A stretch of 64,000 nucleotides of DNA from Schmidtea polychroa (taxonomy: Eukaryota). Shown piece after piece: positions 732 through 26,671 of this stretch (the first letter of the stretch is position 1; every line of letters begins with the position of its first letter). A model generated the notes under the pieces. It was given only the letters and a program-made list of their open reading frames with translations. It ran no database searches and had not been told where the DNA came from. The DNA lies in NCBI GenBank assembly GCA_044892525.1, contig CM097887.1, positions 43,896,001 to 43,960,000 on the forward strand, read 5' to 3'. A program made the translations under genes and the position numbers.

Positions 732-3700
732 TGTTGGGGTTACACCTCGGCTGACCATTCTACCATGTTGGCGGGTCTAAGGGTTGATTGTCCATCTCGA
801 ATAAAAGGTGCCACCGATTTGTCAACCTGGAGTGAAACCCCACATAACTTTCTTCCAACATAGTGCCCGTGAATCACTTCACGTTGGTACTGCACTATGC
901 AGGCGAGACGCCAGCAAGCAGGTGAGCTTCTGCCTTAAAACTACTCCTTGCTGAGGCCTCGACTTCCCATTCACGACTGCCGATAGAAGGGCTTACGTCC
1001 ATTTCCTTACACAACCACCTATCAGGATTCGCTGAATGCAAATTGGGAAATTCTCACTAGATCTTGCGGGTTCTCTACTCAACCCACTTAATTCAAGTCT
1101 AATTATTCATGAACGAAAACGTGTAAGACAACAAGATTTATTAATTTCAACGTTATGACACAAGGATTCAGCTGTACTCTTTACTAATGTTTGTCGAAAG
1201 AAGAGAAAACATCATAATCAACATAGATCGGATCCTTGTTCCTCATCCTGACCGCCACTGGGGTTTTATTGTTTCTCCCATTCAGTGTCGGCGAATAATT
1301 CGTCGAGGTTGAAAAACTCGGAAGCGTTCTCTTCCCACCTTACGCCAGCGGCTGATATGATTCGCGCTGAGGGTCCCGTTGTTAGGTCGATGGACACGTG
1401 AGAGTTGCCACCGTTGGTTGAGTCCTCTATTGATGGGATGTTTGGCTTTGCAGTAGCGCGCTCGCGCTGTCTCTTCTTGCGCTCTGCACGAGAGAGTTGT
1501 TTGCGCTTGGGTTTGCTTGAAGATGCCACTTGCAGAAGGGTGACTGATACAGATGGACTAGCAGTGGGGGGCTTACTGGTACCCGTGATGACAACATCTG
1601 GACGCTTGGGGGACCATTCGGTTTCGACGCAGTCTCGGCACGGTCTCTTGAACGGTGGAGATGGATTCGAGGAAAGGTTGTGATGAGGCGGAAAGATGTC
1701 ATCGGCCTCTCGGATGGGAATCTGCACGATTTTTCGGGTTGTAGCCGCCTGCACGTAAACCTTATGCAGTGCCTCGGATTGTTCTCTGATTAGACTTCTT
1801 TGGGCACGGCTCTCAGATATAAGCGCGTCCCGGCAATGCTCGCTACGATCGAGCTTCTTTTGGATCTCTTTCATCCGAGCGGGACTAAACCATGTCCCTT
1901 CCAGCTCGTCTATCTTCCTCTTGTAACGTCCAATCTGAGTTTGTAGGTCCTTTATCACCGTATTTTTATCCGCGCACGAGAAGCACGGCCGTAATGCTGA
2001 TTTAGTGGTTGGTAGCATGCTTGCTATAAATAATACTAATGAAATGGAGAACATACGATTTTAGAATAAATTAGATACGACCCGCGTCCATTCGTGGATA
2101 CTTGACCGTCGAAAAGGAGGAAAACTTATTCTACAATCCGGTTTTACTACGGATCTTAGTTGTTAAAACAGTTTATTTAACCAAATGCCATCGGTTTGAC
2201 GCATGTTATTAACTTTGACTATCTATTGATCTAACTGTATGCATGAGGGACGTAATAATTGATAGGGTGTAAATATAATATTGGTGAAACAATATAATAA
2301 TGCTTTAGTAGAGGGACATTATAGTATGCGACCAAACCTTGCTATATGTTATCTATTTTAATTTATTAAAAACAAATTACTATCGCTCTCAACATATTTC
2401 TGATTCGAAATTTGTTATTGGAAGTGCACTTTTAATTCGGTAGTGAATGTGATTATCTATGTTGTCTACCATTGGTCTGAAAATATGTGATGAGTTTACA
2501 TCAGCCATTACTTTAACACCCTCATGGAAAATCCCATCGGTCATAACATATATCCAAATTTACGGATACTGCTGTCGACTGGTTGATTACATTATCGACC
2601 TATTGTGAATGTCACGTGTCGCGACTACTATGTATGCTAGTCTGATATTCTGTGCTCTCACCACATGGATTCGTGTATGGCTACTATCTTATCTCACTCA
2701 CTTGGTGTATGCCATTTTCACGGTGATTTTATCGATCCTGCTGTCGTATGATTTTCTCTGCACAGTGATTTATTTGAGTTATGATCTATGCTACCGCCAG
2801 TTCTCATCGCGGAGTTTTACCCTTATCAACTTGTGTGAATGATCACCATCGTTTGGAAATTTATTGGATCTTTTCAGTGATCGTCGAGGGAATAATTCTA
2901 CCAAATACTGGAGCATATTACTACTCTCGTCATTCTACTCGGATTTTCCTATTCAGATGTAATGCCGTCTCGATGAAACCTGTCCTTTTCTCTCAGGTTC
3001 AATAATTTGGATATATACAGTGATGACCTGGCTCTTATTGTAGAAATAAATGTTATTAATTAAATTTGGTGATATTTTACCTGTTTATAATTTTTGAAAT
3101 AACTAAGTCTATAAAACTTTCTGATTATAATATTAGAGAAGTTTTCGTAGAATCTCGCATTTTATAGTTTCGAGTTAGTTAAAGTTTTTAGAATACTTTC
3201 GTAACCTGACATACAATCTGGACAGGTTAGATGACATTGGGTCTATGATAATGGAATTTCATACGAATTTAGTTCTACTGAGTCCGGCAAATAGACGTTG
3301 TCGCAATTAATTTGATAAAACCATGTTTCCAGATGAAGCGTACTATGAGATGTTGTTATTTTTGACGAAGTTCACTAAATCGTGGTCTGGATCTCTTTTT
3401 TCAATAGGGGTAAGACTTACGAAAACGACTTGACGAAAGAAGAATGCGACGCCCTCAATCACTGTGCAAATCCTTGAAAATCCCTTCATTCGTATGACTA
3501 TCTTTGTGAAATCATTGTCTACCGGTTATTTTTTTTATCCATACCCCATTGTGATAATTTAGTCGCATCTTCAGCGATAGGACCCGTGAAGAAGCCTTCA
3601 CATTTCGGCCCAATCTAGCTGCGCGATTGAAATACTCCATGTCCACCGGCTGAGCTCCCGAAGGCACCTCATACCATGACATGGAGTATCTCAACTCCAC

Positions 3701-4574
3701 GTTACTCGTTAAATGAAAATTCATAAAATCTTTAATTCAAATAAAATACGGACATCTGGATAAAAATATTTTATTGATTCTGAAATACTTAAATAATACA
3801 AATTCCATCAATACGTTAAAGTTATTAAAATGGAGAATCAAATGAAGAGAGTTAACTAAAATGTTTAATCGTTAATATTTAACATTATTATTAGCTTTGC
3901 AAATACTTAAATAAATCTATAAACAAATGAAATACCCCTTACTATTGTTAGGCTGAGTCAAAATTCAATGTTGTTCGTTCCAAATAGTTCTAATGGTGGT
4001 CCGTTGGATGTCGATTATTGTGATGAATGGTATTTCGGTCTCTGAACTGGTTTTGAATAGTTGTGGAGTTTTCTGAATGACGGTTGCTTGGCTAGTAGTG
4101 TCGATCCTATGAAATGCTCGGGGTTAACAGTAAGCAGTAAACATTCTTTCTTACCTATGAAATGCTCGGGGTTAACAGTAAATTTAATGTTTTTGGTAGT
4201 TGTATATATATCAAATTCTTATTTGTGCGGACCAATCAGAGTTGAGTACCGCTTATTTCTATTAATTTAATATAATTTTCTTGTTTTTAGGTTGTTTTTT
4301 CCTTATTTTCTTTATTTTTAATATGTTTTTCTATTTATTTCCTTAATTTCCTTATTATTTCTTGAATTCCTCTTTATTTATTTGTCAACTTGTTCTATTT
4401 TAATCTTTTCTTAATTTTATTTTTTTGTTTTAATTCTTATGTCTTAATTATTATTTTCCTTATATCTTATTCTATTTTATTTCTGATTTTATTTATTTTA
4501 TTTTTATTTTTCTTAATGTTCTACTTCCCTACTTTCTTATTTTTCAACGATTAAATTTTCGACTCAGCCCAACA
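732..4574 (-). repeat. 3' LTR (3,843 bp)
   Basis: Matches 26672-30514 wherever compared; every ORF-track protein inside it is reproduced identically at +25,940; 7-bp terminal inverted repeat TGTTGGG/CCCAACA. Confidence 0.97.
1266..2054 (-). CDS. LTR-encoded 262-aa protein (hydrophobic N-terminus, two CxxC, coiled coil, Arg/Lys-rich motif, acidic-aromatic C-terminus); function unknown
   Basis: Intact ORF in the sense orientation of the element; MFSISLVLFIASML, CFSC, CRDC, KPKRKQLSRAERKKRQRER, EFFNLDELFADTEWEKQ. Confidence 0.75.
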   Translation of the reverse strand: MFSISLVLFIASMLPTTKSALRPCFSCADKNTVIKDLQTQIGRYKRKIDELEGTWFSPARMKEIQKKLDRSEHCRDALISESRAQRSLIREQSEALHKVYVQAATTRKIVQIPIREADDIFPPHHNLSSNPSPPFKRPCRDCVETEWSPKRPDVVITGTSKPPTASPSVSVTLLQVASSSKPKRKQLSRAERKKRQRERATAKPNIPSIEDSTNGGNSHVSIDLTTGPSARIISAAGVRWEENASEFFNLDELFADTEWEKQ

Positions 4575-4803
4575 AATCACTCGGGGACCCATCAAAATTG
4601 CGTCCCGCAATTGCATAATTAACTTAATTCATTCATTCAAAAAAAAAAAATATAACACGAACACGGAAAATTATACAACAATGATAAAAACTTTATTGTA
4701 AGATCAAGGTCAAAGCAAGACCAAGCAAGTATCACTTAAGGTGATAGTTGGTACATACAATAAAAGTTTCCACATATAATAACACAAATGTTTGAATTAG
4801 AGT

Positions 4804-5472
4804 TTATGAATTGTTAACCATTGATGCTTCTGCTGGCGGCTGTTGGTTGGTTTGGGTATTGATGTTGAGATAGGTCTGACTATTAGATTTCGGCTGGATT
4901 GGTTGATTACTCGGGGTTCGAGGTCGGAATGGGGTTGGGTTAAGATTTGTCAGGGGCACTTCTTGAGGATTTTGGTTCGAGGTTACTCTTATTGATGTCG
5001 AGATTCTACATCTATTTCGAACTTCGTAAATTTTCATGAATATTGGTAGACATAGGAGGAGGGTTTCTGCGATCACCACATATATGAGATAATGGGCGTT
5101 ATTGATTTCGGGAGGTATTTTTGGCTTTTCTACCAGATTTCCAAAATTCTCTTGTTGCATTTGTTGTTCCAACTGGTCGAATTGTTGAATTTGTTCGAGG
5201 ATTTGTTTGTTTATCATTTTACAAATGGGATTCTTTTTACACATTGTTTGGATGTTGTTGATGTGTGATCGGGTTGATTGAATGGTTTGGATGATATGGG
5301 TTTTTACGGTCATCGGGTATGTGCATTGACTGGATTCTTGTTTAGGTTCTTGATTTTGATTTCGGTAATCTCGTACGATTTTCGGTTGGGCGTCTATTTG
5401 TTTGCTCTCCATCAGAATCATCAATACCATCATTGTTATCATCATCTCGCCTCGCATGATACTATTATACAT
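4804..5472 (-). CDS. Accessory type I membrane protein (222 aa; likely start at Met 5457 or later)
   Basis: Met-rich signal MMITMMVLMILMESKQIDAQ, Cys-containing helical ectodomain, TM YLIYVVIAETLLLCLPIFM, Pro/Gln/Asn-rich tail. Confidence 0.75.
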   Translation of the reverse strand: MYNSIMRGEMMITMMVLMILMESKQIDAQPKIVRDYRNQNQEPKQESSQCTYPMTVKTHIIQTIQSTRSHINNIQTMCKKNPICKMINKQILEQIQQFDQLEQQMQQENFGNLVEKPKIPPEINNAHYLIYVVIAETLLLCLPIFMKIYEVRNRCRISTSIRVTSNQNPQEVPLTNLNPTPFRPRTPSNQPIQPKSNSQTYLNINTQTNQQPPAEASMVNNS

Positions 5473-5512
5473 TCATTATGTTTATTTACAATTGGTTTTA
5501 ATGACCCTTAAT

Positions 5513-6265
5513 TTAATGGTTCTGATTTGGATTATTTTCGCCGATTCTCATCAAGGTGGACTCTGCTTTAATTACCCTGTGTCTTAACTCGGGCAGCATT
5601 TCCAATTGTCGGTCTTTTTCACGGGCTTCTCTCTTTAGATGTCTAATTTCTTTTTCCAAGCGTCTAATTTCTTCCCTTTTCTTTTCAAGGTTTCTTTTTA
5701 GCTCGATTTGTAGGAGATCTTGTTCGTTTTCTTGCAGGTAATTTTGTTGTTGATGTTTTCTTTCTATTTCTCTATATTTGCGGACCCACTTCCTCATTTC
5801 TTTACTTTCCCGTTGGTTTTCTTCTAGTTGTCGTTTTAATTTATTTATAGCTGTTTGGCGCTCCTTCGCCTCAGTTTTCCAGTAGTCCTGGATTACCTCC
5901 TTTGCTTTGAAGCTTGCCCTCTCTTTCCATAGTTCTTCCGCTATCTTTTCCCAGTTTTTCCCTCGCTTCCTTTGTTCGTGTAGCCATTCATTTTCCTCTT
6001 CCGTTTCTCTTTTTATTTCCCCCAACGCTTCGCACTCTTTCTTTAACACCTTTATCATTTTCCGGTCCTCTAGGTATTTGTTTATTAATCTCCCGTTTTC
6101 GTATTTCTCTTCCCGTAACTCGGCCTTTAGCGTTTGTGTTTCTGTTGGTTCTGCCTCAATCTCTCCCTCTTCTACGTCGCTCATAATTTCTATCATTTCC
6201 TCGATTTTCATATCTATAATATGTACAGTTAATGGTGCGCTATAGTGCGACTTATACGTATACAT
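5513..6265 (-). CDS. Accessory coiled-coil protein (250 aa; likely start at Met 6211)
   Basis: Long Glu/Lys/Arg-rich heptad-like ORF, co-oriented with the element; no recognisable domain. Confidence 0.7.
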   Translation of the reverse strand: MYTYKSHYSAPLTVHIIDMKIEEMIEIMSDVEEGEIEAEPTETQTLKAELREEKYENGRLINKYLEDRKMIKVLKKECEALGEIKRETEEENEWLHEQRKRGKNWEKIAEELWKERASFKAKEVIQDYWKTEAKERQTAINKLKRQLEENQRESKEMRKWVRKYREIERKHQQQNYLQENEQDLLQIELKRNLEKKREEIRRLEKEIRHLKREAREKDRQLEMLPELRHRVIKAESTLMRIGENNPNQNH

Positions 6266-6382
6266 TGATATAAAATTTAATAGTTTGGGTTACAGTCCCT
6301 TGAATACTTTTACAATACTTTAATTTTTTTTTTGTTTGGGATATACGTCCCGGTTTTTAGTTTTTCATCTTTTCATCCACCC

Positions 6383-7492
6383 TTATACGAAGGTTTCCTC
6401 CTGGCCTACATAACCTTCATCACTATCGACCGCGGGATGTAACTGTATCGCAATAGGGTCGTATGGTAGGTAATATTGGGGGATTTGAGCTCTCAATTCA
6501 TTAATTTCGTCTCTTAGAGCTCGAGTGATGTTCAATTCCTCGTCGAGCAGATAGGTGAGATACCTTGTCTCTTCGTCTTTCGCCTCTATCTGTTTGTCTA
6601 GGGCCTTGATTTTCTCGTCGCCCTTCCATTTTTCAATTTCTATTTCTAAGTTTTTAATATTTTCGGTGTACATTTTCCTTTCGTTTTCTAATTTTCTGTT
6701 TTTTCCCGCTAGGACCATGTTTCTTTGTTCCAGCGATCCTTGTAATCCATTAAGGTCTCTTTTCATCTCTTCTACCTGATTTACTAATTCCACAACCCGT
6801 CCCGCTTGTTGGGTTATCATCTCTTCCATTGCGGCATTCTCGTGCTCTCTTATGTCGCACTTCATTGCCAAATGTCGCTCAAACTCCATAGCCTTTGTTT
6901 GCCAGGTTTGGCTTCGGGCGGCGACCTTTCTCAACCTTTTCAATTCTTCCTTTATTATTAAATTCTCCTCCCATTTACCTTGTTCGCTTTCATATCCGAG
7001 TCTCATGGGCAATTCTTTCATCTCTTTTTTCATTTCTCTGTTTTGTCTTTTCCATTTTCTCGCTTCTGCCACTAAGTGCATCATTTTCCTGTCTTCTATT
7101 TGTTTTTCCGCTTCGCGCTTGGTGTTCTCATCGGTAAGTCTTTTTCTCGCTTCCTGCACTAGCTGCTTTAAGTAGTGGCTGTGTGCTTCTTGGCGGGTAT
7201 TTTCTAGTGACGCCCATTTTGATGCTCTTTTGCATGCTTCTGCTTCCGCTCTTAAGTTGTGTATTAACCATTGGTATTGACTATTCTCATCTTCTCTAGT
7301 TTCTTCGATGTGATTTCGGGTGAGATTAGTTAGTTGGAACATTACTTTGTTCCATTTTTTATTATGTTCTCGGGGAATTTGTGTCTTGTTGACATTGGTT
7401 GGGGCTATCGCAGTTTCGGTTATTTTCTCTTGTGTCATCTCTAAATCATAGACATCGATTAATCTTTTTATTATGAAAAGGAATTTATTCAT
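6383..7492 (-). CDS. Accessory coiled-coil protein (369 aa; likely start at Met 7438)
   Basis: Long charged heptad-like ORF, co-oriented with the element. Confidence 0.72.
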   Translation of the reverse strand: MNKFLFIIKRLIDVYDLEMTQEKITETAIAPTNVNKTQIPREHNKKWNKVMFQLTNLTRNHIEETREDENSQYQWLIHNLRAEAEACKRASKWASLENTRQEAHSHYLKQLVQEARKRLTDENTKREAEKQIEDRKMMHLVAEARKWKRQNREMKKEMKELPMRLGYESEQGKWEENLIIKEELKRLRKVAARSQTWQTKAMEFERHLAMKCDIREHENAAMEEMITQQAGRVVELVNQVEEMKRDLNGLQGSLEQRNMVLAGKNRKLENERKMYTENIKNLEIEIEKWKGDEKIKALDKQIEAKDEETRYLTYLLDEELNITRALRDEINELRAQIPQYYLPYDPIAIQLHPAVDSDEGYVGQEETFV

Positions 7493-7630
7493 TATTTACT
7501 GTTTCTTGGGAAATTTTCGCATCATTTTTGGGTTTTCGTATTTAGGGTTTTCATACTATTATTATATAATATTTTATTGGTTATATACACCGATATATAC
7601 AGATTATTATATACAACATTATTCGATTGG

Positions 7631-9019
7631 TTACTCCGTTCTACCCTTCTCCTCTTTCCTCACGGTCATCTTGATATATATGGTATCATTTCTCGCCATA
7701 TCTTCTACTCTTTGTTGTGAGATGAACGTAGGTGCTCCTGTTGCTGATCCTTCTTCGTTGAGGGGCCTCTGGTAAGCTATTTGATTCCCCGTTGTTTTGA
7801 AGCTTTGCTCATGTATACTTTGGTTGTTCATCAGAGTAATATCGATTTTTGCCTGGAACGGCCATTCTAATATTTCGTCGTATTCTCCTTTACATAACAG
7901 AAAGAAAATCGAAAAGTGCGTATCCAATCCGGTTCCGTCCCCGTTGGGATATACCTTCATTTTCATTTTGTACCCATTTTTCCAAGAATGGAATGTAGGA
8001 CTTGTTATTCTTGTCTCTTCTCCGGTTTTTGCTTTTCGTATTCTTTCTTTTACTCCCGTTATTTTCCATATGTAGGGTGCTGTTGGGGTTATCTCATTTA
8101 GATTTATTTCCCGTATTTTCTGATGTAGCTCCTTGGCCTGATTATTACTGATTTCTGTTCGGTTTATTTGCATCTTTATGTTTGCTCGGGCTTCTTCGAA
8201 CGCTTCCCTTTCTTCTAGTAGTTCTTTGACTAACACTTTCAACGATGTTATCTCTATCTCCATTTGTTTTACTTTCTCTTCGCTTTCTTGTAGCGCAGTC
8301 GACCACATTTCTGCGTGAGTTGAAGCATTTCCTACTAAATGATGTGGTAACTCACCTCGGTGTAGTAGTTTCTGACAACCCCATCTACCTAGTACACATG
8401 TCATTCTTTTCTTTGCGCATTCCCTTAGATGCTGTGCCACCTTCATTATTTCCCCTTGGTTACATCCGTTTGGGCATTCCCCACTGAACTCTGCACATAC
8501 TCTCTCCTCTTGGACATTGTGATGTTTGAGGGTGAGATTTATCCACGTATCTATTTCTCCACAGTATTCACATCTTTCCAATCTCTCTTCACACTGCCTT
8601 TGATGCTCTTTTTCTTCGCTTGCTCGAATGGTTTTATGGCACCTTTCACACTGGCCAATTCTGTACATACATTCTCCCATATGTTGTACTACCTTCCATA
8701 TTACTCCTTTCCATTCGCATGGGGCATTTTTGCATCCCAGGTTGGTGTTTAACATGTCTTTCACTGCGGCTTTATCCTCGTTAGTGTCTTCTAAACTCGA
8801 TATTAGTGTCTCTTTACACACCGGGCACCTCTGTGGTCTATTCTTTATTGCTTCACTGATACATTCTTTACATACTCTGCATCCACATTGCGTTTGGTGA
8901 GGTTCCTTTAACAACTTTTCACATATTCCGCACATAACATGTTTGTGTATTCTGATCGTTGTAGATTTTCGGACTTGCTCGACAATCTCTCTGAACTCTT
9001 CTCTTTGTCGTTTATCCAT
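7631..9019 (-). CDS. TRAF-family protein (RING, TRAF zinc fingers, coiled coil, MATH/TRAF-C), intronless, inside the retroelement
   Basis: CGICEKLLKEPHQTQCGCRVCKEC...CPVC RING; C-x-N-x2-C-x-W-x-G...H-x3-C zinc fingers; YIWKI...SPTFHSWKNGYKMKMKVYPNGDG...HFSIFF...GEYDEILEWPF TRAF-C signature. Paralog cannot be assigned by eye. Confidence 0.93.
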   Translation of the reverse strand: MDKRQREEFREIVEQVRKSTTIRIHKHVMCGICEKLLKEPHQTQCGCRVCKECISEAIKNRPQRCPVCKETLISSLEDTNEDKAAVKDMLNTNLGCKNAPCEWKGVIWKVVQHMGECMYRIGQCERCHKTIRASEEKEHQRQCEERLERCEYCGEIDTWINLTLKHHNVQEERVCAEFSGECPNGCNQGEIMKVAQHLRECAKKRMTCVLGRWGCQKLLHRGELPHHLVGNASTHAEMWSTALQESEEKVKQMEIEITSLKVLVKELLEEREAFEEARANIKMQINRTEISNNQAKELHQKIREINLNEITPTAPYIWKITGVKERIRKAKTGEETRITSPTFHSWKNGYKMKMKVYPNGDGTGLDTHFSIFFLLCKGEYDEILEWPFQAKIDITLMNNQSIHEQSFKTTGNQIAYQRPLNEEGSATGAPTFISQQRVEDMARNDTIYIKMTVRKEEKGRTE

Positions 9020-9104
9020 TCTATAATTATATGTACAAATAGTTCTTATCGATACAGGTTCGATATTTTATTTACAATTATTTACATTTTAAGCTAGGTT
9101 TGGT

Positions 9105-9488
9105 TTAGGGTTCGGAAGAGTCGGCTTCGTGCCCGCTCTCCTCTCTATTCATTAGCCATTCCGACCAGTCTTCTATTTCTGTCTGTTCTGCTTCCTCCCT
9201 CATTCGGTCTATTTCAATTTCCTGTCGACGGCTATATTGGGTTATCCTCTCTATCTCTCTTTGCATTTGTTCGATTTTTAACCTCTGGTCTTCAATTATC
9301 TTCAAATAACTAAATCCTCTGTTCATACTCTCGATCAGGTTTCTGTGCATCGTCAGTCCTTGTTCTTGCAAATTGGACACTAATTGTGCTAATACGGCAC
9401 ATTGTTGCTTCCATAATTCTTCAGTTACTGTATTGTGGTTCATTTCGTTATTTCCTTGATCCATTCCTAATTTATATACACTTTTCAA
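9105..9488 (-). CDS. Accessory small coiled-coil protein (likely ATG start at 9464, MDQGN...)
   Basis: ORF track starts at a TTG; first ATG at 9464; helical, acidic C-terminus. Confidence 0.62.
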   Translation of the reverse strand: MKSVYKLGMDQGNNEMNHNTVTEELWKQQCAVLAQLVSNLQEQGLTMHRNLIESMNRGFSYLKIIEDQRLKIEQMQREIERITQYSRRQEIEIDRMREEAEQTEIEDWSEWLMNREESGHEADSSEP

Positions 9489-9624
9489 CTCTTATGTAAA
9501 TTTAATTTTATTTTATGATTCCCGTTATTGTATAATATTGATACCGCGCTTATATAAAGATATAGTACTGTTATATACATAAGATATACTTACTTTTTAC
9601 AATTATATACAGTCATATTCCTTT

Positions 9625-10635
9625 CTATATACGTGAGTTTGGAGGGCGCTGAACGTTCCAGGCCTCCACCCACTGTCCTTGTTTGATATCACTTGGTCGT
9701 TTCACTCGATGTTGGAAGTTTCTGATTCGGGTCATTTCTAGTTCTCCGCGATGTCGTTTATCTTTAATTATTTTTATTGTTCCCCCCGTTATGATTAGGA
9801 ATGCCCCTGTTATTATTATCCCACTGATCCACATCATCTGCTTCACGCTTATACTCTCTGGTTTTTCCTTGTTTGTTAATGTTGATATCGCTTCTGTACT
9901 TTTCTCGTTTCCTCTTTTGCCATTTCCTTTCATCATTTCCCGTATTCTTGCTATTTCCTCGTTCATACCCTCCTTTGCCATCTTTTGTATTTTTTCCATC
10001 TCTTCCTCCGAAACATAGTTGTCCTGAGCTTCCTCACCAGTTTTCTTGTGCTTTCCTCCTTCGTTCTTTTCGTCGTGGTTTTTTCTTTTCTTTCCTCTTT
10101 TCCCCGGGTATCGTCGGCATTCTCTTTTTGATTCATTCCTCCAGATACAAACCGTGTATTCTTTCGGCGGCTGCTGCTGCGTCACATATTGATGGCATCT
10201 CTCACCTGGTCCTAATCTTGAAATACAGACTTTGTGCTCTTTTCTAGGTTGGATCTGCGTTATTACTACTTCACCACCTTTTCCTAGGTGTACCTCTTTT
10301 CCTTTGACGTTCGTTATTCTCTTCCCGTCTCGATTTCGGTATGCTTCTTGTATTCTTACTTCTGTTATTGGTTCTGTGTCCTCATTTATCAGTACTAGTT
10401 TCTGATACGCTCTAGACATGCATCTTCCTAGTATGCACCTTTCCTTTAAGTCCCATTCTTCCTTTAAATCCCACTGCTGCTCTTGTGCTTGCTTTCTCTT
10501 TTCTTGTTTTAGTTCATCCTCTTTGCTATCTTGATTCTCCGCTTCTTTGGTTTCTTTTATCGTTCTCGTCCCTCCCTGAGCTGTTACTAACTCTATCATG
10601 GTAAGCATAATTATCATTAATATCATATTTGTCTC
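9625..10635 (-). other. C-terminal type I membrane protein module of the polyprotein
   Basis: Signal-like MILMIIMLTMIELVTAQ (about 10580-10635), Cys-containing ectodomain, TM MMWISGIIITGAFLIITGGTI (about 9775-9840), short basic tail. Confidence 0.65.
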
Positions 10636-13600
10636 TATTTCTTTGTTAGTGAAAGGTAGGCATACCCTCTGTTTTCCATTATTCGATTTTTCCTCCTCTT
10701 TGGTCTTGGTTCTCGGGCTGTTTCCCTCTCTTTTCGTATCCGAATCCTTGTTTTCTGGTTTACCCTCCTCCGGTTCTCTTTTCTCTTTATCCTCCTTTCG
10801 GCCTTTTCCGTTATTGTCATCGTGTTTATCTCCCTCGCTGTCATTTAAAATGTCGTCCTCGACATTTATATCGTTCAATAATCTGCGATATGCTGTTAGC
10901 ACTCTGTTTCTTGCTAATTTTGCTTCGAATTCAAACTCTTTTCTACCCGTTGCAGCATGTCTCTTTCTATTCCATTCTTTAACTAACTCTCTCAATTGCA
11001 TACGACGATGTTTCCCAATTCGTTGTTGCTCGTTCTGATTTTGCGTGAATTTTAGGTCTTCTCTATTTAATACTACTAAAATAATTTTCGGCGTCCCCCC
11101 CTTAGTTAGGGTATTCTTTACCATCGCATTTTCTCCGTTTTCGTAGAATTCGTTTACATTTATCGCATATTTATTATTTGGTGGTACTCTCCAGGTTAAT
11201 AATAATTTCATTGCTTCTAGATTTTTCCGTACCGTATTCCATTGAAACTGAGATGTGTTTTTGCACATATTTTCAACTTCTTCTTCTGTCGCATTTTTGC
11301 AAATAAATCTGATCATTTCTAAGTTTGGCTGTATGGTTGCCCAGTCCAAGGTGGAATTTCCTTCATTGGACCTTTCGTCTAGTTTCGATCCTGATTGATG
11401 TAGGATGTGGAGTGTTTTTGGGTGTATTTTCGTTATAGCTGCATACATCATGGCGGTTTCACCTTGTTCATTTTTCGTGTTGGTTTCCTCGCCCATCTCC
11501 CCAAGGATTCTCATGATCGTTATTGCTCTATTCTCTTTTGCAGCTAGTATTGCTTGTTGTAGGGGTGTTCGGGAATCCTTCGTTACCATCGTAAATGCTC
11601 GAGGCAAGAAGGTTTTGATTTTCCCGATATCTAAACCCGTGGTTTGATCTCTTGCGTATGTGTGTACGGCTTTTATTATTTTGGACAATATTATTTCGTC
11701 TGGCAGCTCTAGCATTTCCTCAAAGAACACTTCTTTTGCTTTGCGTATTATTGCCTCTTGATCTATACTCATTGATTTGGTTTCGATGACGTTGTTTGTG
11801 ACCGTTCGGTTCGTTGTTGACTTTGATTCCCTGGATTTCTCATACCTTATTTTCGTTTTCTTTCCGTTTGGATTATTGATTCGTTCCTCTGCTGTAAGTA
11901 TTTGGATAATATCCATGTAATTCTCGCGGATGTTATTCATCGTGTCCATCATATATAACACACTTACTGTTTCCCAATATTTATGTCGTACTTGGTTAGT
12001 AAATTGGAATAGTGATTTTTCGAATGTGTCGATTCGCTTTTTTGTTAACTGTTCGTCTTTGTGATTTGTGAATTTTATCCCTCGTTCTAGTAATTGATTC
12101 GGGATTTCGAATAAATGATGTCCTTTCATAGCTTCTCTCATCAGCGTGTTCTCTCCTCTCGTGAACGCTTCGTTTACGTTGATCATATAATCGTTTCGAA
12201 TTGGATTTCTCCATGTAATTAATATTCCGGTAATTGTCGTCAGTTTTTCTTTGATCGCTGTTAGCAATCCATCATACATGTTTCCGACTTCCCGATTGTC
12301 CTCATATGATAGTAGTTCCATCAATGACGTGAACGCCTCGGTACTTCTCCCTCTGATAGCATGATGTAGAGCGTTTTTCCGCTCGTGGTCTTGTGTAGTT
12401 ATTTTCGATCCGGTATCGAGTAATGCGGTTATAATGTCTTTTGTTTTGCCTCTGTTTGCGGCTATCATTAATGGTGTGTAACCTTGGTTGTTTGTTTGTT
12501 CTGTTGATCGCTTGCAGTCGTGAAATGCTTCTATTGTTTCTAGTATTTGCTCGTTGTTACCTACTTTCATGAGTTTGTGTAATGGTGTGTCTCCGTAATG
12601 ATCTGTTATTGTAAATAATATTGGCCATTGGCTTTTGACTACTCGCAATAATGGGTGTGTCCTTTCTCTATTTGCATAGTTCTCGATCATCGTCAATAAT
12701 CCTCCTAATATTTCGAAATCTAATCGATCTTTTGCCCATCCAGGTATTTTAATTTTTACCTCTTTTACAATCTTTTCCGCTTCTGATGGTTGGATACCTA
12801 ATCGTCCAGTGATCGGTTCTGCGAGTTGTTGCATCATGTTCATTCGGTAGGTTTGCGAACGTGTGGTTAATGTACGGCCTTCTGGTTGACTAGTGGCTGT
12901 TTTTGGAATTGATTTGCATCGTGCCACGTTTACGTATATTGGTCTGGTAAAGGGGTTATTTACCAATTTCACTCTTACATTAGTTTCGCCTACGAATAAG
13001 ATCTCATATGGTCCTTTTCCGTTGCGTTGTAACTTTTTTGTGGTTCCTGGAATTAATTCCGGGGTTTCTATCATTACCCAATCACCTGTTTGGAACGTAT
13101 GTTGCTTCACGTTTTTCTTTCGATCGTGTAAATCTTTATAACTTTCCTGGTAGAACTTGATATTTAATCCCGCAGTTTCCCAAATTTCTTGCATTCTTTC
13201 CTTGAATTTCGTAACATAATCATCGATCTCCATATACTGCGATATCGGTGGTTGGTATTCCAGGTCCATTGGCATATTACATTCTCTTCCGTACATTAAT
13301 TTGAATGGGCTCATTTTCGTTGATGCGTGAATCGACATTCTGTACGCCATAAGACATAGGTTTATATATTCGTCCCAATCTCGTTGGTGACGGTCAACGT
13401 AGTTTGATAACATTTGTATAAGTGTTCCATTAAATCTTTCCGTCATCCCATTGGTTTGAGGGTGGTATGGAGATGTTCTTAGTTTTGCTATTTTGAAGTA
13501 ATTTGTTACTTCGCTCATTATCTCACTCATAAAATTTGTTCCCTGATCGGTTAAGATTTGTTTTGGTGTTCCATATCGGCAACATATCTCTTCTACCAAA

Positions 13601-16600
13601 ATATTTGCGATTGTTTTAGCTTTTTGGTCTGGCATCGCGAATGCTTCTGAGAATTTCGTAAGAAAGTCTGTGATCACCAGAATGTAAACGTTTCCTTTAT
13701 CTGACTCTGGTAGTGGACCAACTACGTCCATGGATATCATTGTCATTGGTTCTATTGGTACTGGCATTGGCGTTAAAGGTGCTTTCCATTTCGATCCCGT
13801 ATTCTTCCTGGTTGCACAAGTTAGACAATTTTTTACCCATTCGGTTACATCTTCCGTTAACGTAGGCCAAAAATATTTCTGTTTCATTCTTGCTAACGTC
13901 TTTTTCGATGACATATGTCCTCCCAATCTCCCATCGTGATATTGCGTTAGTAACTCTTTTCGTCGGTTTTCCGGTATACACATTAATCGTTTTTCCCCAT
14001 CCATTATCAGCAACCAATCTTTCTCTATAATATATCGGTGTCGGTGTTTATCCATATGTTCTTTTAATTTTTGGTCTTTCGCATATACATCTGTCTGTCC
14101 GGTTTTTATATAATCGATAATTTGTTTTAATTCCGCGTCCTCTTGTTGGTCCTTTCGCAATTGACAGAAATCCAAATCTTCCGCTACTATTAAGCATATG
14201 CGTTGCATTTCTGAATCCACCAAATCTGGGAAAATAAATCTTGACATACAATCGGCGTTGGCATTTGCTCTTCCCGCTTTAAATTTTATAAATGGGGAGT
14301 ATTCTTGCAATTGCATGGCCCATCTCATCAGTCTACTGGACGCTTCTTTATGTTGCCCTAACCACACTAATGGTTGATGGTCTGTGGTTATGCATATCTC
14401 ATGTCCCCATAGTAAATATCGGAAGTGTTTGATAGCTTGTATTATAGCCAATGCTTCTCGTTCTGTTACCGAATAGTTCTTTTCGTGCTTTTTGAATGTT
14501 CGACTGTAATACCCGATTACTCTCTCTTTTCCCTCATCGTCCAATTGTCCCAGAATCGCGCCTGCCGCGTACCCGCTTGCATCCGTTGCCAATAGAAATG
14601 GCCTCTTAAAATCTGGGTGTACGAGGATAGGTGCTTCGATTAGTTTGTCTCTCAGCGTTTCAAACGCCTCTTGTTGTTCCTTCCCCCATAAGAACGAAAT
14701 GTCCTTCTTTACTAATTCCTGGATTGGTTTTGCAATTCCTGCATAATTTTTGATAAATTTGCGATAGTATCCGCATAATCCTAGAAATTCCTGAACTTGG
14801 GTGACAGTTTTCGGTGCTGGACATGTTTTTATTTTCTCAATGTTTCTTGGATCTGGCTCCTTTCCTTTAGCTGACACTATGTGTCCTAAAAACGTGACTT
14901 TTTCCTTTGCCCAATCGCATTTTGATGGTTTGAGTTTGAGTTTCCACTGTCTTAATCTAATAAATACGTTTCGGATATCTTCTAGATGTTGTTCAAATGT
15001 CGCTGAATAGATTAGTAAATCATCAATATATACCATACATTGTTTGATTCCATGGGTGACAAAGTTCATACACCGTTGAAATGATGCTGGTGCGTTAGTC
15101 AGTCCAAATGGCATTTTCCTGAATTGATATAGATCTCGTCCCAACGTGAAAGCTGTTTTCTCTTTGTCCTCATCTTTGACTTTAATCTGCCAGTATCCAC
15201 TTTTTAGATCTAAAGAAGTAAAATATGCTGCCCCTTGCAACATCAATAACATCTCATTGATGTCCGGCAATGGGTAGGTATCTCTCTTGGTCACTGCGTT
15301 TAACTTCCGATAATCGATACAGAATCGTTGGGTGCCATCTTTCTTTTTTACCATGACCACTGGGAATTGCCAGGGTGAGCAACTTGGTTCGATTACTTTT
15401 GCGTCTAGCATCTTTTGTACTTCTGTTTCGGCTATTTCTTTCTGCATTTCTGCTAGCTTGTATGGTCTCAATGCAATTGGGGTTTCGTCTATGAGTGGTA
15501 TTGCATGTAAGGTAACATCACATGTACCCAAGTCTAAATCTGAGATGGCGAATATATCTTTATATTCTACCAACAATCGGTGCAATTTTTTCTTTTCATC
15601 ATTCGTCAACAACATACTATCCATTGTCCATAATTCATCATCTTTGATCATCTCGTTGGTCACTTTCGGTAATTCTATGTCCATCATTGGGGTCAATCTT
15701 CCCAATTTTTCGTTCTCATAAATGATTTTGTCTTCCTCTTCGAAATTCGTGATGTTGAGCGGTATCACTCCTTCTTGGTTTATTGTGATTATTTCTCTTG
15801 CGAGTGGTAATTCTCGTCGCTTTTCAAATGACTTGCTTGGTTCAAAGATAACTTCTCCTTCCATACCCGTATCCACTTTTATCTGACAAATCATCTGTGA
15901 TTTTGCTGGTACTATTATTTTTTCTGGACATCTGATGACTGCATTCATTTTGCATATTCTACCGGTTTTGTCTTTTAAACACATGGTTGTTAAGTCAATT
16001 ACGACTTCTTTTAACAATTCTGGCATCAAATCCGTTCCGATTATGCATGGTACGCTAAGTTTTGGTATTACTGCCAAATACGTTTCAATTTCGTTGTCCT
16101 GGTATCTCAATGTAGTCCACCATCTTCCGACCACGTCCACTGTTTCTTTACTACATGCTATGATGTGAATTGTTGTTGATTCGATATCCTTCCAGTGTTT
16201 ACTGGGGATTTGATTAATCGCTATCGCTGATACATTAGCTCCGGTGTCTATCATAGCATTGGTTTCTTTACCATTGATTTGAATCATAACTGTTACTGCT
16301 GGACCTCCAGGTAAACTCATCGCTGCTATTGTTCTTACGTCATCTGCTTGATCTACACTTTTGGTACGTCGTGTTGGCATATAATGCATACCGGGTTGAC
16401 TCGGTAATTGCGGATACATATTTTGTGTCATGGTCAAAGCTGCTTGTGGTCCCACGATATCCGGTGGTATATAGCTTCCATTGGCGATCCAGGTGTTTGT
16501 CTTTTCCTTTTCCCAATATGGTGCCGTTTCCATTGGTTTTTCGTTTGGGTTTCTGTTTGGATAAAGACATTTATCGTTCCCGTTATCATCGTCGTCACTA

Positions 16601-19600
16601 TCGCTGTTAGATGATTGGCTTCTAAATCGGTCCAAGAATTTTGGCTTATTCTTTTTCAATTGTCGTCTTGTTGCTTCATCGTACATTACTTTCCGGAATC
16701 GTCTGCCTACTTCCTCGTCGGTTCCTTTAATCTTTGTTAATATTTTAATCAATCGCTTTATCCGATGAATGTCTTTTGAGTGGCCATGTAATACCATGGT
16801 CTTAGCTAAAAATGGTAAGAAGCCTACTATCATTTTCCAATTAACTTTCTTTTCCCGCTTGTATATATCGAAACAAGCTAACATTTGTGTTAGTATTACT
16901 CTGACTATCTGAATTATGAGTATGATCCCTAATATCCCGGCCATCATTTGTCCAAAAACTAAGAATCTTCCCCACATTGCTTTCATCATGTTTGACGTAG
17001 CTTGTTGAAAATGGTCTGGCGATAATAGCAGCTCGTAATTCGGGCCTGATTGATAGTTTGTGCCCCCAGTTATTGTTACCATATTAGACAAAATGGATTC
17101 TCGTCTGGCTGGGAAGAGTACGTTAAGTCGTGCTGTTTCTAGATCTTCTGGGGAATACATACCACCGTTTGACACGTCTATAGGTTTGAAATCCAGCTCT
17201 GTGGCGAGTTCTATTAATCCAAATTTCTTGGGCTCCTCGGATATGGTTTTTCCCGGTAACATCATCCATTTCCCATCGGGCCTTTCATATAAAGGTCCGT
17301 ATGCATTAGAACAGTTAAAGAGATTTGGGTAGAAACCCACTGGATTCATAATTCTAGTGACTGGTTGGACGAATCGATTTTGTCCTTTATAACGGATTTC
17401 TAATTCATTTGCACATCTCTTTTCGGGTAGTATGGATTTTTCTGGCATTCGTGCATACGTCTTGGTACACTGGTATGTGTACATCACTTCTCCTACCATT
17501 CTACCAAAGTGTCCATCTGGTAATGGGAGTGATGGCATCGTGTTATCTGGGTGCGTTATCGCAATAGCTAGCTTTGTTTTCAATATTTCTTTATTCAATG
17601 AACAATCGTTTTGTATTAGATCGTAATATACTTTTTGCAAGGTCGTTTGTCCGCGATGAAATAGAAAATCCATTTTATTATTTGCATATAAGTATAGTTT
17701 TACGTCCTCCGTTGCTATCTTTCCCACTGCTCTATCGATTATTTGTCTCGACATATAGATACCTGCGTAATTGGTTTTATATACTATACTGTCACATTTG
17801 GTGGTTTCTTTCTCTTTGATAAATCTCATACCTAGATCTGGATCGTCTGTGATTAATGCTGTTGGTGTCTTCTGCGTTGAAAGTCTCTTTTCTCTGGGAG
17901 ATGGTGGCATTGGTTTTCCATTTCGCATTCTCACTCTGTCGTTTCCATCCTCGTCGTTCTCATTCTCATATATTTCTCCTTTTACTTCATTGAACAAAGC
18001 ACTTTTTAACAGTTGGAGTCGGCATTTTTGGGTATTAGCTTCATAGATTATAGTTGATACTCCTGTCCTGCATACGTTTTCTGTAGCTCTACACGTTGGG
18101 TTGGTCTTCATTTGGTAATTATTTGCGTCAAATTGCGCTTCGTATTCTTTTAATTCGACCGTGTAAGACTCGATCACTACAACTCCCGATATTACCTCGC
18201 CTCGGATCGTATACGTACCTCCGTTACATGACCCATCTGATGATTTTACTTTTCCGGATACGTAAACACTTTCGGTTTTAATCATTCCAGTTTGTCCGTG
18301 AATTGTCACTCCGTTATGCATTTTTAGCGCTCCGGTTCTAAATAGCTCTTTACAATCCTCTCGTTGTATTGATACGATTTCTTTATCCAGACCGGGTAGT
18401 ATAAGAGTCGAATACGAATATTGTCCACAGTAATATGCGAGTACCTTTTTTGATACTACGCATTCCCTTGCTTGCGTTCTGATGAAATCTGATTCTTGAT
18501 ATACATGGTAAGTAACTTTTGTTCTCACGATGTCCAATTTGTTGGGTGAGGCTTGTCTGCATTCTTCTATGTCTCTCAATGAGTATTTATCTCTCATTAT
18601 CATGTTATCACAATCGTAGATGGTGAAACCTGTTGCTCCACTTGTGCACAACATCCATATCATCATAGTCATCATTAACGAATTTATTGATGCTTTTCTG
18701 CTTGCGGGATCTTTCATCGGTAGTTCCCATTCTAGTTCATTTAACAGTTTTTTCAATCTAACTTGCATCGACCTTTCTTGCTCATTTTTCCGTGGCGCTT
18801 GTATCAGTCTTTTCCATCCTCCTGCACGAATAATGTGTGGTTCAATAGTATTCTCTATGATTGAAACGGTCATTTCTACATGATTTGCAAACTGTTTATT
18901 TGGTATTTTCCTCGCAGCTAGTCCCATCAAATTATACATCAAATAAGTGATTACCACTAGGTGATGCTCGTCATCATTTGCATTTGTCGTGAGCTGCTCA
19001 ATCACTCTCTTTGTTTCGTCCCAATCCGTTTTGGTGGTTTTCGTTTTCTCTTTGATTAACTTTGGGATTATCCCCGAAATGGTGTGCCATAATTGTCTAG
19101 CTTCCGTACTGGCTACTTTCCGTTGCCACAAACGTCTAAGTTGTGGGTTTGTTATTATTAACATATCTTTTAACAATTCTCGTATCCATTTTTCTCCTCT
19201 TTCGATCGTTGGTTGGGCTTCCTTTAGATCCCATACTATTTTATCCAATTTTTCTAATCGAACTTGCCCTTGTTCTTGCTTTAATTGTTCTTTGGTTTTG
19301 AACTCAGACTTTTCTCCTTGTTTCTTGGGTCTTCCTTTTGCCCGTTTTTCCATCATCGTTCCGGCTTCTCTGGTATTTTCGTAATTCGGATTTCTTTCGT
19401 TATCCGTTCTGGGTAATGAGCTATCGTTATTTCTTAGCCACTCATTCCATTCGTCTATTATTTTGTCGGTTTGACTTTCTGGTGTTACTTTCGTTGGTTC
19501 TCTTTGCTTCTGGAATTGTTCATCCGTTTCGGTTTCCGTAGTATTGTCGATGATTTCTTTGATGTTCAGTTTCGTTGGTTGTTGATAACTCGTTGATGGC

Positions 19601-22600
19601 TGGTTATTAGTCCACATTTCGGCTCCTGTCGGCCATCTCACTAATAGCGGTGATCTTTCTCCTGGTTCATCGTCACTATCTTCCAGGATTATCTCTTCAA
19701 CTTCTTCAGTTTCATTAGATTTACTTGGTGCTTTGTTCGGACTTGGAGTACTCAAACTGCCTTTTGTTGGTTTAATAATTTTACTTTTCCTTTTTAACGG
19801 TTTTCCCAACGTTTCTGCCATTGTTAATACATTTGTCTCTTCCAATCTCATGGGGGTTATCCCGACGTCTGCATTATCGTCTAGTGATTTTCCGAACAGT
19901 TGCAGATGGAATGGAGTTTCATATGCTAATTCCTTTTTTAATTCTCTAATTTTTGTTGTTGGATGCACCTCTAGTTCCTCGATGCTCTTGTCTGGATACT
20001 TGATTCGGATGTGATACCTCTCCTGGGTGTCTTGTGCCCATTCCTGATTTCTCCATTTTCGAATAATTTGTTCTAGCTGTTCTGGATACCATTCATTATA
20101 TTGCCGGTATTCCTCTATTGCCTTTGCCATTCCTCTCAGATTGTGGATGTCCTCTGATGTCTTTAAGATGATGTTAGCCAACGCTACTACTTGGCGTCTT
20201 TGATTTTTCGCTCCCATTGCTAAGATATCGCCTAATTGTTTATATCTTTCTTTCTCTTCTCGTTCTCTTGCTTCCGTCGCTTCCTCGCCGTCCATATCAG
20301 CATATTCACGTTCCTTTTTCCTCATTGCATGAATATGTCTCGCTTCATTTTCGCTTTCTGATGTGACATCCGTCTCGCCTTCGTCATCTGATGTCTGTTC
20401 CCTTGCTTCCTCTTCATATTTTGGAGGTTCCTCTTCTTCTTCCTCCGATTCACTTTCTGTCTCACCAATGTCTGTTTCCACGAAGGTTCCTTTCCGGATT
20501 TCCCATTCCTTACTTTCTGCATTCCACACTCTTTCCCATGGGGTTCGTCTGCAGGATCTGGTGCTTAATTTCGTGATTTTTCCTTGTAGTTCTTTTTCTT
20601 TTAACCATTGTTGGTGGATTTTAATTATTTCCGTAGATTTTTGATATAACGTTTTCATCCGGTCTCGTATTTCTTTTTGATAGGTTACATCTCTTGTTCG
20701 AAATTCATCCATTGGTACTATCCTGATTATCTGGTGATTGTCCCACATACCCATTTCGCTTAACGAGGTGTCGTCCTCCGCTCGTAATATTATCTTATCG
20801 TACATCATGACTACATCATCCACCATACCATCACTACTTTCGCTACGTACCTTTTCCGTTATCTCTTGGTTTATTTTTGATACCAAGTCATCTACTGTAC
20901 TCTGATTGCTCATTTTTATTCGTCGTTTTTCTTCGTTCGGTAACCATATGGTTATTTCCAACCTCTGTGGCTGGGTTTCTTTTAACCTTCCATATTTGTG
21001 GATCAAATTTATGGTTCTCCAATCACTCATTCGGAGCATTTCTGTATCTCGCAACCGGCTCATTAGTTCGTACATGGCTGGGGCTCGTCTGGTGATGAGT
21101 AAATCCCAGTTGTCTTCTACTTGTTCTTGAATTTGTTTGATCAGCTTATCCAGGTTTCGTCTCAGAGTACATTGTTTTATTTGTTCTAATTTCAATTTGA
21201 TATTAAAATCATATTCTGCCTTGGCATCTTTAGCCCAATCGTAAAGGTTGGCTGGTTGTTTTTCTTTATGCAACTTCAGTATTTGCGTTTCTCCTGGCCA
21301 TATTAGTGCATCTACTAAGTGCATATCTGGTTTGATCTGTTCTCCTTGGTATTGATACAGATATTCTTTCTTTCTCGAACTTCCCAAATGCTCTCGTATC
21401 CAATCGAAAAGTTCGTCGGTGACTGTATTTTTTATCCACATTCTTTCAAGTCCTCTACTCGTTCCGATTTTTATTACATACCGCGTGGTATCGGCCTGCT
21501 TCATTTTTTCCATATAATTTTTTATAATTGATTTTTCCTCGTTTGGTATTAAATCTTTCTCGTTTCTTTCCAATTTCATCACTTTTTGCACGAATCGCCT
21601 GAATGGTATTACGTCAATGAACTCTTGGTTCCTCACTACTACTGGGAGTATTTCCGCTACTTGTTTTATCGCTTCCTCCTTCCCTTTTCTCAACTTTATT
21701 TCGATATCCTCGTCTTCACTTTCGCTGGTTATCTCGCTTTCGCCTTCTTCCTCTTTGATTTCCCCTTTTGGAGGTTCGCTTATTTCATTCAGCTGTAGTA
21801 TTTCTCCACCCAAACTACTTACATAGTCTTCTTCCTCGTCTGACGATGCTACATCTTTTGTCCTTTTCATCATATTGATTTGCAAGTTTCTCATCCTTGG
21901 TACTCTCTTTAGTTTCTTTCTTTCGAATATCGTTGTTTCTTCTGATTCTAATTCCTGTAGCATTTGGTGGTTTAGTTGACTGGTTTGTTCCTTGCTCTTG
22001 TTATTTTCATCTTCTGTCTCGGCTTTCGCTTTATTATGTTCTTTTTCGATTTTATCTTTTATCTTTTTCCAGAATATTTTCTGAATTCTCTGGTTTCCTT
22101 TTAAAATCGTGGTTGAATTCTCTGTTTTCATTTCCGTTGTTATTTCTTTTACCTTTTCTGGTTCAGTCATGGGTACTACCCTTGGGCTTTTCCCGTAATT
22201 GTAGCAATACTGGCTCTTCATGTCTTTTACTAACTTCATCATATTTATTCGCAATGGTTGTTCTTGTCGTTGTTGGTTGCGTTCTTGTTTTATCCTCTCT
22301 TCCTCGGCCTGTAGCCTTTGCCATTCTTGTACATGTTGATGCACTTCATAATTGTTGAGATTTTCGGTACTCCTCATCATACGTATATTCTGGGTTTGTT
22401 GTGGTGCTGATTCTTGTCTTGGTCTCATCATTTGTTGCATCATCTGTTTCATCTGCGAAATTTCCTGCATAACGTTCATTTGTTTTCCTTCGTTAGGGTT
22501 ACTTTGTCGTTGCGGATTCGCTATATAATTATTATTTCGCTGTGGTGGTCGTTGTTGTTGGCCCCTTTCTCGGCAATCTCTGGAGATGTGACCTGGCTGA

Positions 22601-25843: not shown

Positions 25844-26329
25844 TCATTCGCCATAATAGACCATATGGGTCTCTTTTATTTCATATTTGCACATCGTGCA
25901 TCTTTTTAGGTCTTTTACACACTCTTCACAGTGACTGAGGTGTCCACACGGCAAGAATAATACGCGAATAGGACGGAGTTTGCAGGCTATACAAGTTCGT
26001 AATTGGTTAACTTTTTCCTGTATTTTTTGTTCGATTGCATCTGGTATTGTATTTAGTGAGTCTTTTAGACGCTGATAATCTAGATTTAATGTTGGGTGGT
26101 TCAATCTCTCTTGATACCACTGATATACGGTTTCGGGGTTTATTTTTCCATCTGGGCGACTTAGGCCTGTGGCTAATATCATATGATTAGGTACGACTGG
26201 TGTTTGTCCGATTGCTTGCAGTAATATCGCGTTGATTTTTTCTCTTTTATGCGTCAGTGTTGTTAGGGAGTCGTTTTCTATATCGATAAACTTGAGCAGT
26301 TGTTGCATTTGGTTCGCGAATTCTGTCAT
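25844..26329 (-). CDS. 161-aa protein with C-terminal IAP/XIAP-type C3HC4 RING, no BIR domain
   Basis: CIACKLRPIRVLFLPCGHLSHCEECVKDLKRCTMCKYEI at the extreme C-terminus, preceded by helix QKIQEKVNQLRT. Confidence 0.85.
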   Translation of the reverse strand: MTEFANQMQQLLKFIDIENDSLTTLTHKREKINAILLQAIGQTPVVPNHMILATGLSRPDGKINPETVYQWYQERLNHPTLNLDYQRLKDSLNTIPDAIEQKIQEKVNQLRTCIACKLRPIRVLFLPCGHLSHCEECVKDLKRCTMCKYEIKETHMVYYGE

Positions 26330-26664: not shown

Positions 26665-26671
26665 AAAATCA

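Follow-up and report, generated by a model that had tools for sequence, protein, structure and literature searches.

The window analysed here, 64,000 nt of Schmidtea polychroa DNA (NCBI GenBank assembly GCA_044892525.1, contig CM097887.1, positions 43,896,001 to 43,960,000), carries on its minus strand a 29.8-kb long terminal repeat (LTR) retroelement that appears to belong with the giant Burro elements of planarians. It has one very long polyprotein gene, an open reading frame (ORF) for a RING protein upstream of this, and five further ORFs downstream, referred to as A, TRAF, C, D and E. We propose that a single short leader encoded in the LTR is probably spliced in cis to alternative last exons, one for each of these ORFs. 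The acceptor-like sites that lie immediately before the ORFs are very probably functional, and it is their conservation, together with a donor in the LTR that bears genomic traces of use, that carries the proposal. Coordinates are those of the window and are collected in Table 1.

Acceptor-like sites before the accessory ORFs

The original prediction, made from the letters of this DNA, was that each accessory ORF is preceded by a 3' splice-site-like motif, TGT...TAG adjoining the ATG, and that the ORFs are expressed either by alternative cis-splicing or by spliced leader (SL) trans-splicing. All six of its AG...ATG contexts are present on the minus strand where it placed them, with predicted first exon bases at 9466 (A), 9020 (TRAF), 7440 (C), 6213 (D), 5461 (E) and 26331 (RING). 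It had also proposed a test of enrichment against shuffled spacers, and this came out in its favour: YAG is found 0-4 nt from the ATG in all five 3' spacers where 0.45 would be expected (3000 dinucleotide shuffles, p<=0.0003). As a control, the same arrangement is present at 26 of 183 internal ATGs of the polyprotein and at 44 of 477 ATGs in host DNA.

Conservation was followed in 20 copies of the element, drawn from 150 TRAF matches across identity bands, mostly with open frames and 78-99% identical over the cluster. AG lies 0-4 nt before the ATG in 99 of the 100 site-copies (five 3' ORFs in 20 copies), and in 79 of the 80 site-copies that exclude ORF A, which mostly has AAG, the trinucleotide is YAG. 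Within this constancy there is change of the kind expected of an acceptor, TAG having become CAG in 1 copy at TRAF and in 4 each at D and E, and the distance from AG to ATG being shifted by indels. The chosen ATG is kept in 20/20 copies for each of the five ORFs. It had been said that an internal in-frame ATG was chosen for four ORFs, and the correct number is three (C, D and E), for which 1, 15 and 20 of the 20 copies respectively also have an in-frame ATG further upstream.

The same arrangement recurs in a second abundant family, found by a BIR search, which has MATH in its polyprotein and a BIR-RING ORF and so fits Burro1 better than does the present element. Its accessory proteins are 25-33% identical to those discussed here where they match. 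In the copy that we label L042, AG lies 0-3 nt before the ATG in all six 3' ORFs (2.5 expected, p 0.003) and YAG is present in five of the six 3' spacers (p<=0.0003, shuffles). The other three copies agree wherever an ORF start is listed, TAG having changed to CAG once, before the BIR ORF, and the RING ORF has TAG immediately before its ATG in 3/3; the AG motif precedes all seven accessory ORFs of this family. Conservation, the toggling between TAG and CAG and recurrence in a second family thus all support the reading of these motifs as 3' splice sites, while splicing itself is a prediction.

One further acceptor-like site, at 23735, is doubtful as it lies inside a conserved coding frame.

A duplicated leader and a putative 48-nt intron in the LTR

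With regard to the two routes originally offered, we favour cis-splicing, because there is a conserved donor in the LTR, behind a 25-nt first exon, that bears genomic traces of use; SL trans-splicing is the main rival. The general layout of the LTR is ATTGG, a TATA box, a leader copy a of 24-26 nt ending YAG, GTAAG or GTAAA, and then a stretch of 46-54 nt that ends in a second leader copy, b. Of 48 LTR loci examined, a set enriched for single-copy LTRs by choice of loci, 35 have the donor layout, 11 have a single copy without a donor and 2 are without the anchor (2 of the 20 3' LTR loci in the leader comparison). A donor after a short first exon is thus conserved across 35 loci with 16 distinct leaders, and the second family has GT(A/G)AGT 76-85 nt past its TATA box in 4/4.

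The two leader copies of one LTR are the same at 23-24 of 24 bases, where different leaders share 12.7 on average, and the agreement of a with b falls from at least 0.94 to at most 0.62 beyond position -25. A point variant of copy a recurs in copy b (L094/95, L097/98). Among the 100 LTRs listed from 138 matches, the intron is exactly missing in 8, always from both LTRs of an element, which indicates that the loss precedes integration; these intron-less LTRs came from a pattern search that was not aimed at them. Past copy b the sequence is that of another lineage, the change coming precisely at the AG. Where different bases precede the two copies, the one before copy b is G in five lineages, A in one lineage and C in another, and copying of an RNA cap would tend to give G. 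No third leader copy was seen in the 6 loci counted.

Six LTR loci (L076, L079, L080, L082, L084 and L090) may have a second donor: in these a GT (GTAAAT or GTACTC) comes directly after copy b.

Proposed mechanism

Copy a would be the capped first exon, with transcription starting about 31 nt past the TATA box, and one donor, at 30094, would select among the acceptors. Splicing to copy b, 48 nt away, would give a near-full-length genomic RNA that keeps the primer-binding site, and splicing to 26332, 24081 and the five 3' ORF sites would give the RING, gag-pol and accessory mRNAs, each ORF being an alternative last exon that probably ends at a poly(A) site of its own in the following spacer. 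The genomic RNA would start with a single leader copy, and the first DNA made from it would end in the leader complement. This DNA could pair with copy b of the unspliced 3' LTR, synthesis then going on through the intron and copy a. Landing on copy b would rewrite copy b from copy a and restore the intron in each round, and landing on copy a would give intron-less LTRs. Strand transfer onto copy b would explain the sharp borders of the copies, the extra G and the lineage switch.

In its full form the proposal is that all RNAs of the element are spliced from one 25-nt leader, that copy b is a decoy acceptor which uses up the donor for genomic RNA, that the intron is rebuilt each round, that gag-pol and a separate mRNA for each cargo gene come from seven distal acceptors, and that there is no unspliced RNA. 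We put this forward tentatively, its chances being a little short of even. The cargo mRNAs would then possibly include that for the regeneration-relevant B-IAP of the sister family. The further idea that leader RNAs of solo LTRs act in trans has no support and is most improbable.

The gag leader and the RING unit

Both families have an acceptor-like site before gag, followed by 500-690 nt without ATG (5/5 and 3/3 copies). In the alignment of this leader, four of the eight regions fetched were unalignable (L054, L057, L060, and L058, which is LTR only). Upstream of the ATG at 23478 the gag frame stays open for 104 codons, with conservation at the protein level, as far as an invariant ACG at 23790 (5/5 copies, strong context), and in the second family there are 103 open codons before the first Met of gag. 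A second ACG, at about 23947 on the minus strand, may open a short conserved upstream ORF. Judged from the sequence, non-AUG starts are likely for the gag frame and for the upstream ORF.

Downstream of the RING ORF (25600-25843) there are AATAAA at 25739 and 25701 and a T run, as after ORF E, so that RING may form a self-contained last exon within the leader. A tandem array of units of about 74 nt lies between RING and gag, at 24749-25274.

TGT words in the spacers

The TGT that was originally taken as a fixed part of the motif did not hold up in that role, being kept in only 10/20 copies at ORF C and absent at the RING and gag acceptors. Thirteen of the 17 TGTA words fall outside the last 25 nt of the spacers. 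The longer word TGTAHATA occurs 11 times in the spacers of this element (9624-9465, 9104-9020, 7630-7439, 6382-6212 and 5512-5458) against 0.55 expected, and 7 times in those of L042 against 0.71. TGT followed by A or C is also enriched near acceptors (5/5 here, 4/6 in the second family). The TGT part is better read as a spacer element separate from the splice motif. We take TGTAHATA to match the Pumilio/PUF element consensus. The other candidate was a CFIm signal, and this is weakened by PMC5068929, where the part available to us describes planarian poly(A) signals without upstream UGUA; a Pumilio-type element is therefore likelier.

Evidence against the proposal

Several observations weigh against a common leader spliced to all of these sites. 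The TAG predicted at ORF A is present in this copy, but it is the minority state, and 18/20 copies have the weaker AAG followed by A-ATG. The 3' acceptors are without pyrimidine tracts, T runs being found only at the RING and gag sites, and a YTRAY-like word is present at only two of the five (C and D), as well as at RING and copy b. The spacers are well conserved overall, with 47-68% invariant columns in 12 diverged copies, and as the copies are also kin, the invariance of AG within the family is by itself modest evidence. The ATG-free gag leader has a p of 0.16 against its own dinucleotide model, and stands out only in contrast with the 12 ATGs in the upstream 620 nt. AATAAA is not enriched in the spacers of the two families (p 0.36 and 0.16, shuffles). 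Three of the 16 leaders have an ATG at +2, and the leader duplication is absent from the second family in the 4 copies examined. The traces of donor use concern the 48-nt intron only, and use of the distal acceptors, up to 25 kb away, is predicted.

On pyrimidine content, the acceptor-like site of the host RAE1 is also AT-rich rather than pyrimidine-rich. At 40020-40036 this RAE1-like gene has a possible trans-splice site, an AG that precedes its ATG by 4 nt.

The transcript evidence consists of assembled contigs, in which short leaders are not reliably preserved, and it lends the proposal no support. For the region 732-20700 (runs X1, X6, X7 and X2) 15 of 19 joints and 19 of 437 loose ends were listed, and for 8780-9680 (runs X1, X6, X8 and X4) 13 of 61 loose ends. 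There is no leader-to-acceptor junction among the joints and loose ends listed; in the first region none of those listed falls at a named acceptor, and in the second none of the 13 carries a leader, whether host SL-like or from the LTR. Two X1 contigs run colinear across the ORF A acceptor, as is expected of genomic RNA or DNA. With no such junction among those listed, splicing at these acceptors is something that we infer. Genomic fossils were also sought. No retrocopied leader-to-ORF junction was found among 68 sequence matches, for which 22 surrounding or related loci were fetched, those inspected being LTR variants, and two further searches for retrocopied junctions gave 0 matches.

Two contig joints were set aside: that at 8110-9561 has non-splice ends and a 20-letter side, and that of run X2 at 4155, exactly at the donor, is better read as a lineage switch than as a skip.

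Alternative explanations

The strongest alternative is an operon-like one, in which a polycistronic precursor is cleaved at spacer poly(A) sites and a host SL is trans-spliced to each downstream ORF, the LTR donor serving the short intron and perhaps RING and gag. The spacers between same-strand ORFs are 55-192 nt long, below the 300 nt taken as the maximum for flatworm operon candidates in the accessible part of PMC12582326, and SL trans-splicing is reported in Schmidtea in that of PMC10899757. In 17, 20 and 20 of the 20 copies respectively, A, TRAF and C have AATAAA 15-60 nt ahead of the ATG, and a poly(A)-like end is located 60 nt before the ORF A acceptor, where cleavage upstream of the acceptor would remove the cis donor. 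However a strong cis donor is present upstream, and such donors are said to prevail over the SL (PMC4558846, in the part available). Flatworm SLs, as described in the portion of PMC12582326 available, end in ATG, which would be out of frame at AG-ATG distances that are mostly 1, 2 or 4 nt, and this distance varies among copies regardless of frame. No SL-like loose end was seen among those listed, which is weak evidence. We consider this explanation unlikely, though worth keeping in mind, and the SL and cis routes can share acceptors.

The donor-like GTAAGT (9593-9588) is followed, about 65 nt further on, by the poly(A)-like end at 9527; it might weaken that poly(A) site through U1 binding and so allow read-through.

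A second alternative is a small internal promoter in each spacer, the AG then being start-site or translation context and not a splice site. The spacers are AT-rich with TATA-like words, A, TRAF and D have the word ATAAG 27-41 nt upstream of the ATG, and most of the ATGs have a purine at -3. A fixed translation context does not, however, predict an AG that is kept at 0-4 nt while its YAG toggles; the D-E spacer has only 55 nt for a promoter, and by eye there is no promoter-like word common to the spacers of the second family. This is quite improbable.

Thirdly, the accessory acceptors might be real and the duplication of the leader a matter of tandem-repeat turnover, by reverse-transcriptase slippage or conversion, and so uninformative on splicing. 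Direct repeats are indeed lost and gained in reverse transcription without splicing, and exact loss of one unit is also expected from deletion between direct repeats. However in 16 leader variants a and b cease to be identical at the predicted start and at the donor, every linker starts GTAA, and there is no third copy in 6 loci; we rate this explanation marginally lower again. Chance in AT-rich DNA, with free choice of ATG, would account for AG 0-4 nt before 18-30% of control ATGs, but hardly for 5/5 and 6/6 spacers (shuffle p<=0.0003 and 0.003) with the chosen ATGs being the conserved ones, and can be put aside as the least probable of all.

The element and its family

From its sequence the element is a Burro-like giant of the Ty3/gypsy type. 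Its size of about 30 kb (29.8 kb) and multi-kb LTRs, 3843 bp each and identical to one another, are those of a Burro element. The order of domains in the polyprotein is gag, fusion glycoprotein, protease, reverse transcriptase, RNase H, integrase and ankyrin. The fusion protein, of the Monjiviricetes type (PF24664, amino acids 1868-2207), is env-like and lies in frame between gag and the protease (2397), and ankyrin (3642) follows integrase, as in Burro elements, which also have accessory ORFs with TRAF/MATH and RING like those present here. This architecture is described for planarian Burro elements in the part of PMC6431247 available to us. No BIR match was found among the 8 element proteins scanned and the polyprotein has no MATH domain, and in this the element departs from Burro1 proper.

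The family is abundant, with 374 DNA candidates and 150 scored TRAF matches at 83-100%. No homologue of ORF C was found, and TRAF had one at E<=1e-40. Five env-bearing elements from the PF24664 search were dropped as being without a comparable accessory cluster. Shorter gypsy families (L022-L023, L026-L027, L030-L031, L034-L035 and L038-L039) have the same fusion protein between gag and pol, with a polyprotein of about 3330 amino acids in one of them, and are without ankyrin or the accessory cluster.

The primer-binding-site-like stretch bears a putative likeness to tRNA-Pro. An LTR block at 29496-29670 is 79-88% conserved among three subfamily copies with unalignable flanks and has no Rfam match; an Rfam search of 23000-30600 likewise gave no match.

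Table 1. Positions of the features discussed, as window coordinates (aa, amino acids)
Feature	Position	Strand	Details
5' LTR	26672..30514	-	3843 bp, TG...CA; same sequence as 3' LTR; 4-bp target duplication CCTT
CCAAT-like box ATTGG and TATA box	30176-30172, 30150-30143	-	26 nt apart in all donor-bearing LTRs compared
Leader copy a	30095..30119	-	predicted 25-nt first exon, ends TAG, ATG-free; putative start about 31 nt past TATA
GT-AG intron-shaped unit	30047..30094	-	48 nt, GTAAGA donor; last 25 nt (30071-30047) are leader copy b
ORF within LTR	27206..27994	-	262 aa; no Pfam match; no AG adjoining its ATG
Primer-binding-site-like stretch	26647..26664	-	
RING acceptor-like site	26332..26345	-	pyrimidine run, CAG; 61-nt AG-free zone; AG kept in 4/4 alignable copies
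RING ORF	25844..26329	-	161 aa; PF13920, E 3e-11
gag-leader acceptor-like site	24081..24094	-	T run, TAG; next 602 nt ATG-free
Polyprotein	9625..23478	-	4617 aa
Donor-like GTAAGT	9588..9593	-	about 30 nt past polyprotein stop; kept in 19/20 copies
Poly(A)-like 3' end	9527	-	one contig, run X6; in polyprotein-to-A spacer; internal priming possible
ORF A acceptor-like site	9465..9480	-	TAG here; AAG in 18/20 copies
ORF A	9105..9464	-	119 aa; no Pfam match; homologue in second family
TRAF acceptor-like site	9020..9037	-	YAG in 20/20 copies
TRAF-like ORF	7631..9019	-	462 aa; RING and MATH domains
ORF C acceptor-like site	7439..7454	-	TAG in 20/20 copies; AG-to-ATG distance 2-4 nt
ORF C	6383..7438	-	351 aa; no Pfam match above cut-off
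ORF D acceptor-like site	6212..6227	-	TAG in 16/20, CAG in 4/20 copies
ORF D	5513..6211	-	232 aa; no Pfam match above cut-off
ORF E acceptor-like site	5458..5471	-	TAG in 15/20, CAG in 4/20, lost in 1/20 copies
ORF E	4804..5457	-	217 aa; hydrophobic stretches at start and middle (by eye)
AATAAA, then T/GT-rich sequence	4692..4697	-	precedes 3' LTR; kept in 18/20 copies
3' LTR	732..4574	-	leader copies 4179-4155 and 4131-4107; donor 4154

Relation to known systems and significance

The adenovirus major late unit has a common non-coding leader which, with alternative 3' splice and poly(A) sites, gives one mRNA per ORF, as is proposed here. It differs in belonging to a DNA virus with a tripartite leader and no reverse transcription, and hence does not have to carry an intron through an RNA stage. 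On that last point there are the split-intron retroviral vectors, reportedly engineered by Ismail et al. in 2000, in which reverse transcription of the LTR is said to place a functional intron in the progeny. These are artificial and single-round, whereas in the present element a natural copy of the exon would be both acceptor and landing site in every round.

The complex retroviruses HIV-1 and the foamy viruses are alike in having one donor near the 5' end and acceptors just before the accessory starts. A major splice donor with several acceptors is dealt with in the part of PMC12789967 available. Unlike in those viruses, about 25 nt separate the donor here from the predicted cap, a splice seems to be required for gag-pol, the genomic RNA would itself be a spliced product, and the spacers may carry their own poly(A) sites. 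The SL operons of flatworms and nematodes, as outlined in the accessible text of PMC12582326, are alike in having short same-strand spacers with 3'-end signals and then an acceptor near the ATG, but here the leader would be encoded by the element, act in cis and be mostly without AUG. In BARE, going by the portion of PMC3735527 available, separate RNA pools are translated and reverse-transcribed and one of them is made by splicing, as would be the case here, but BARE is a Copia element with one internal splice, two TATA boxes and no common leader for many ORFs.

With regard to the Burro/GYPSM1 elements of dugesiid planarians, the available part of PMC6431247 indicates that they are alike in length (about 30 kb), in their long LTRs and single huge polyprotein, in the mononegavirus-like fusion protein between gag and pol, in the ankyrin, TRAF and RING cargo and in having separate accessory ORFs; unlike Burro1, the present copy has no BIR ORF and no MATH in the polyprotein. 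In that part the account is silent on how the accessory ORFs are expressed, and PMC8532177, as far as its accessible text goes, deals with BURRO1 expression with splicing unmentioned. Our literature search on Burro, splicing and LTR introns found no paper on Burro splicing, though the main Burro papers and their supplements may hold transcript maps.

Planarian genomes are full of Burro elements, whose six or seven separate ORFs lie far from the promoter. The analysis addresses how these ORFs are expressed and provides exact predicted junctions. One Burro cargo protein is reported to protect stem cells (PMC13465017, in the part available, citing Lee et al. 2026). The proposal also offers a natural answer to how a retroelement that copies itself via RNA keeps an intron, and the homogenised leader copy would mark the transcription start from DNA alone. 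If the proposal is true, this would be a retrotransposon with an adenovirus-like expression programme and a self-renewing intron, and with no unspliced RNA.

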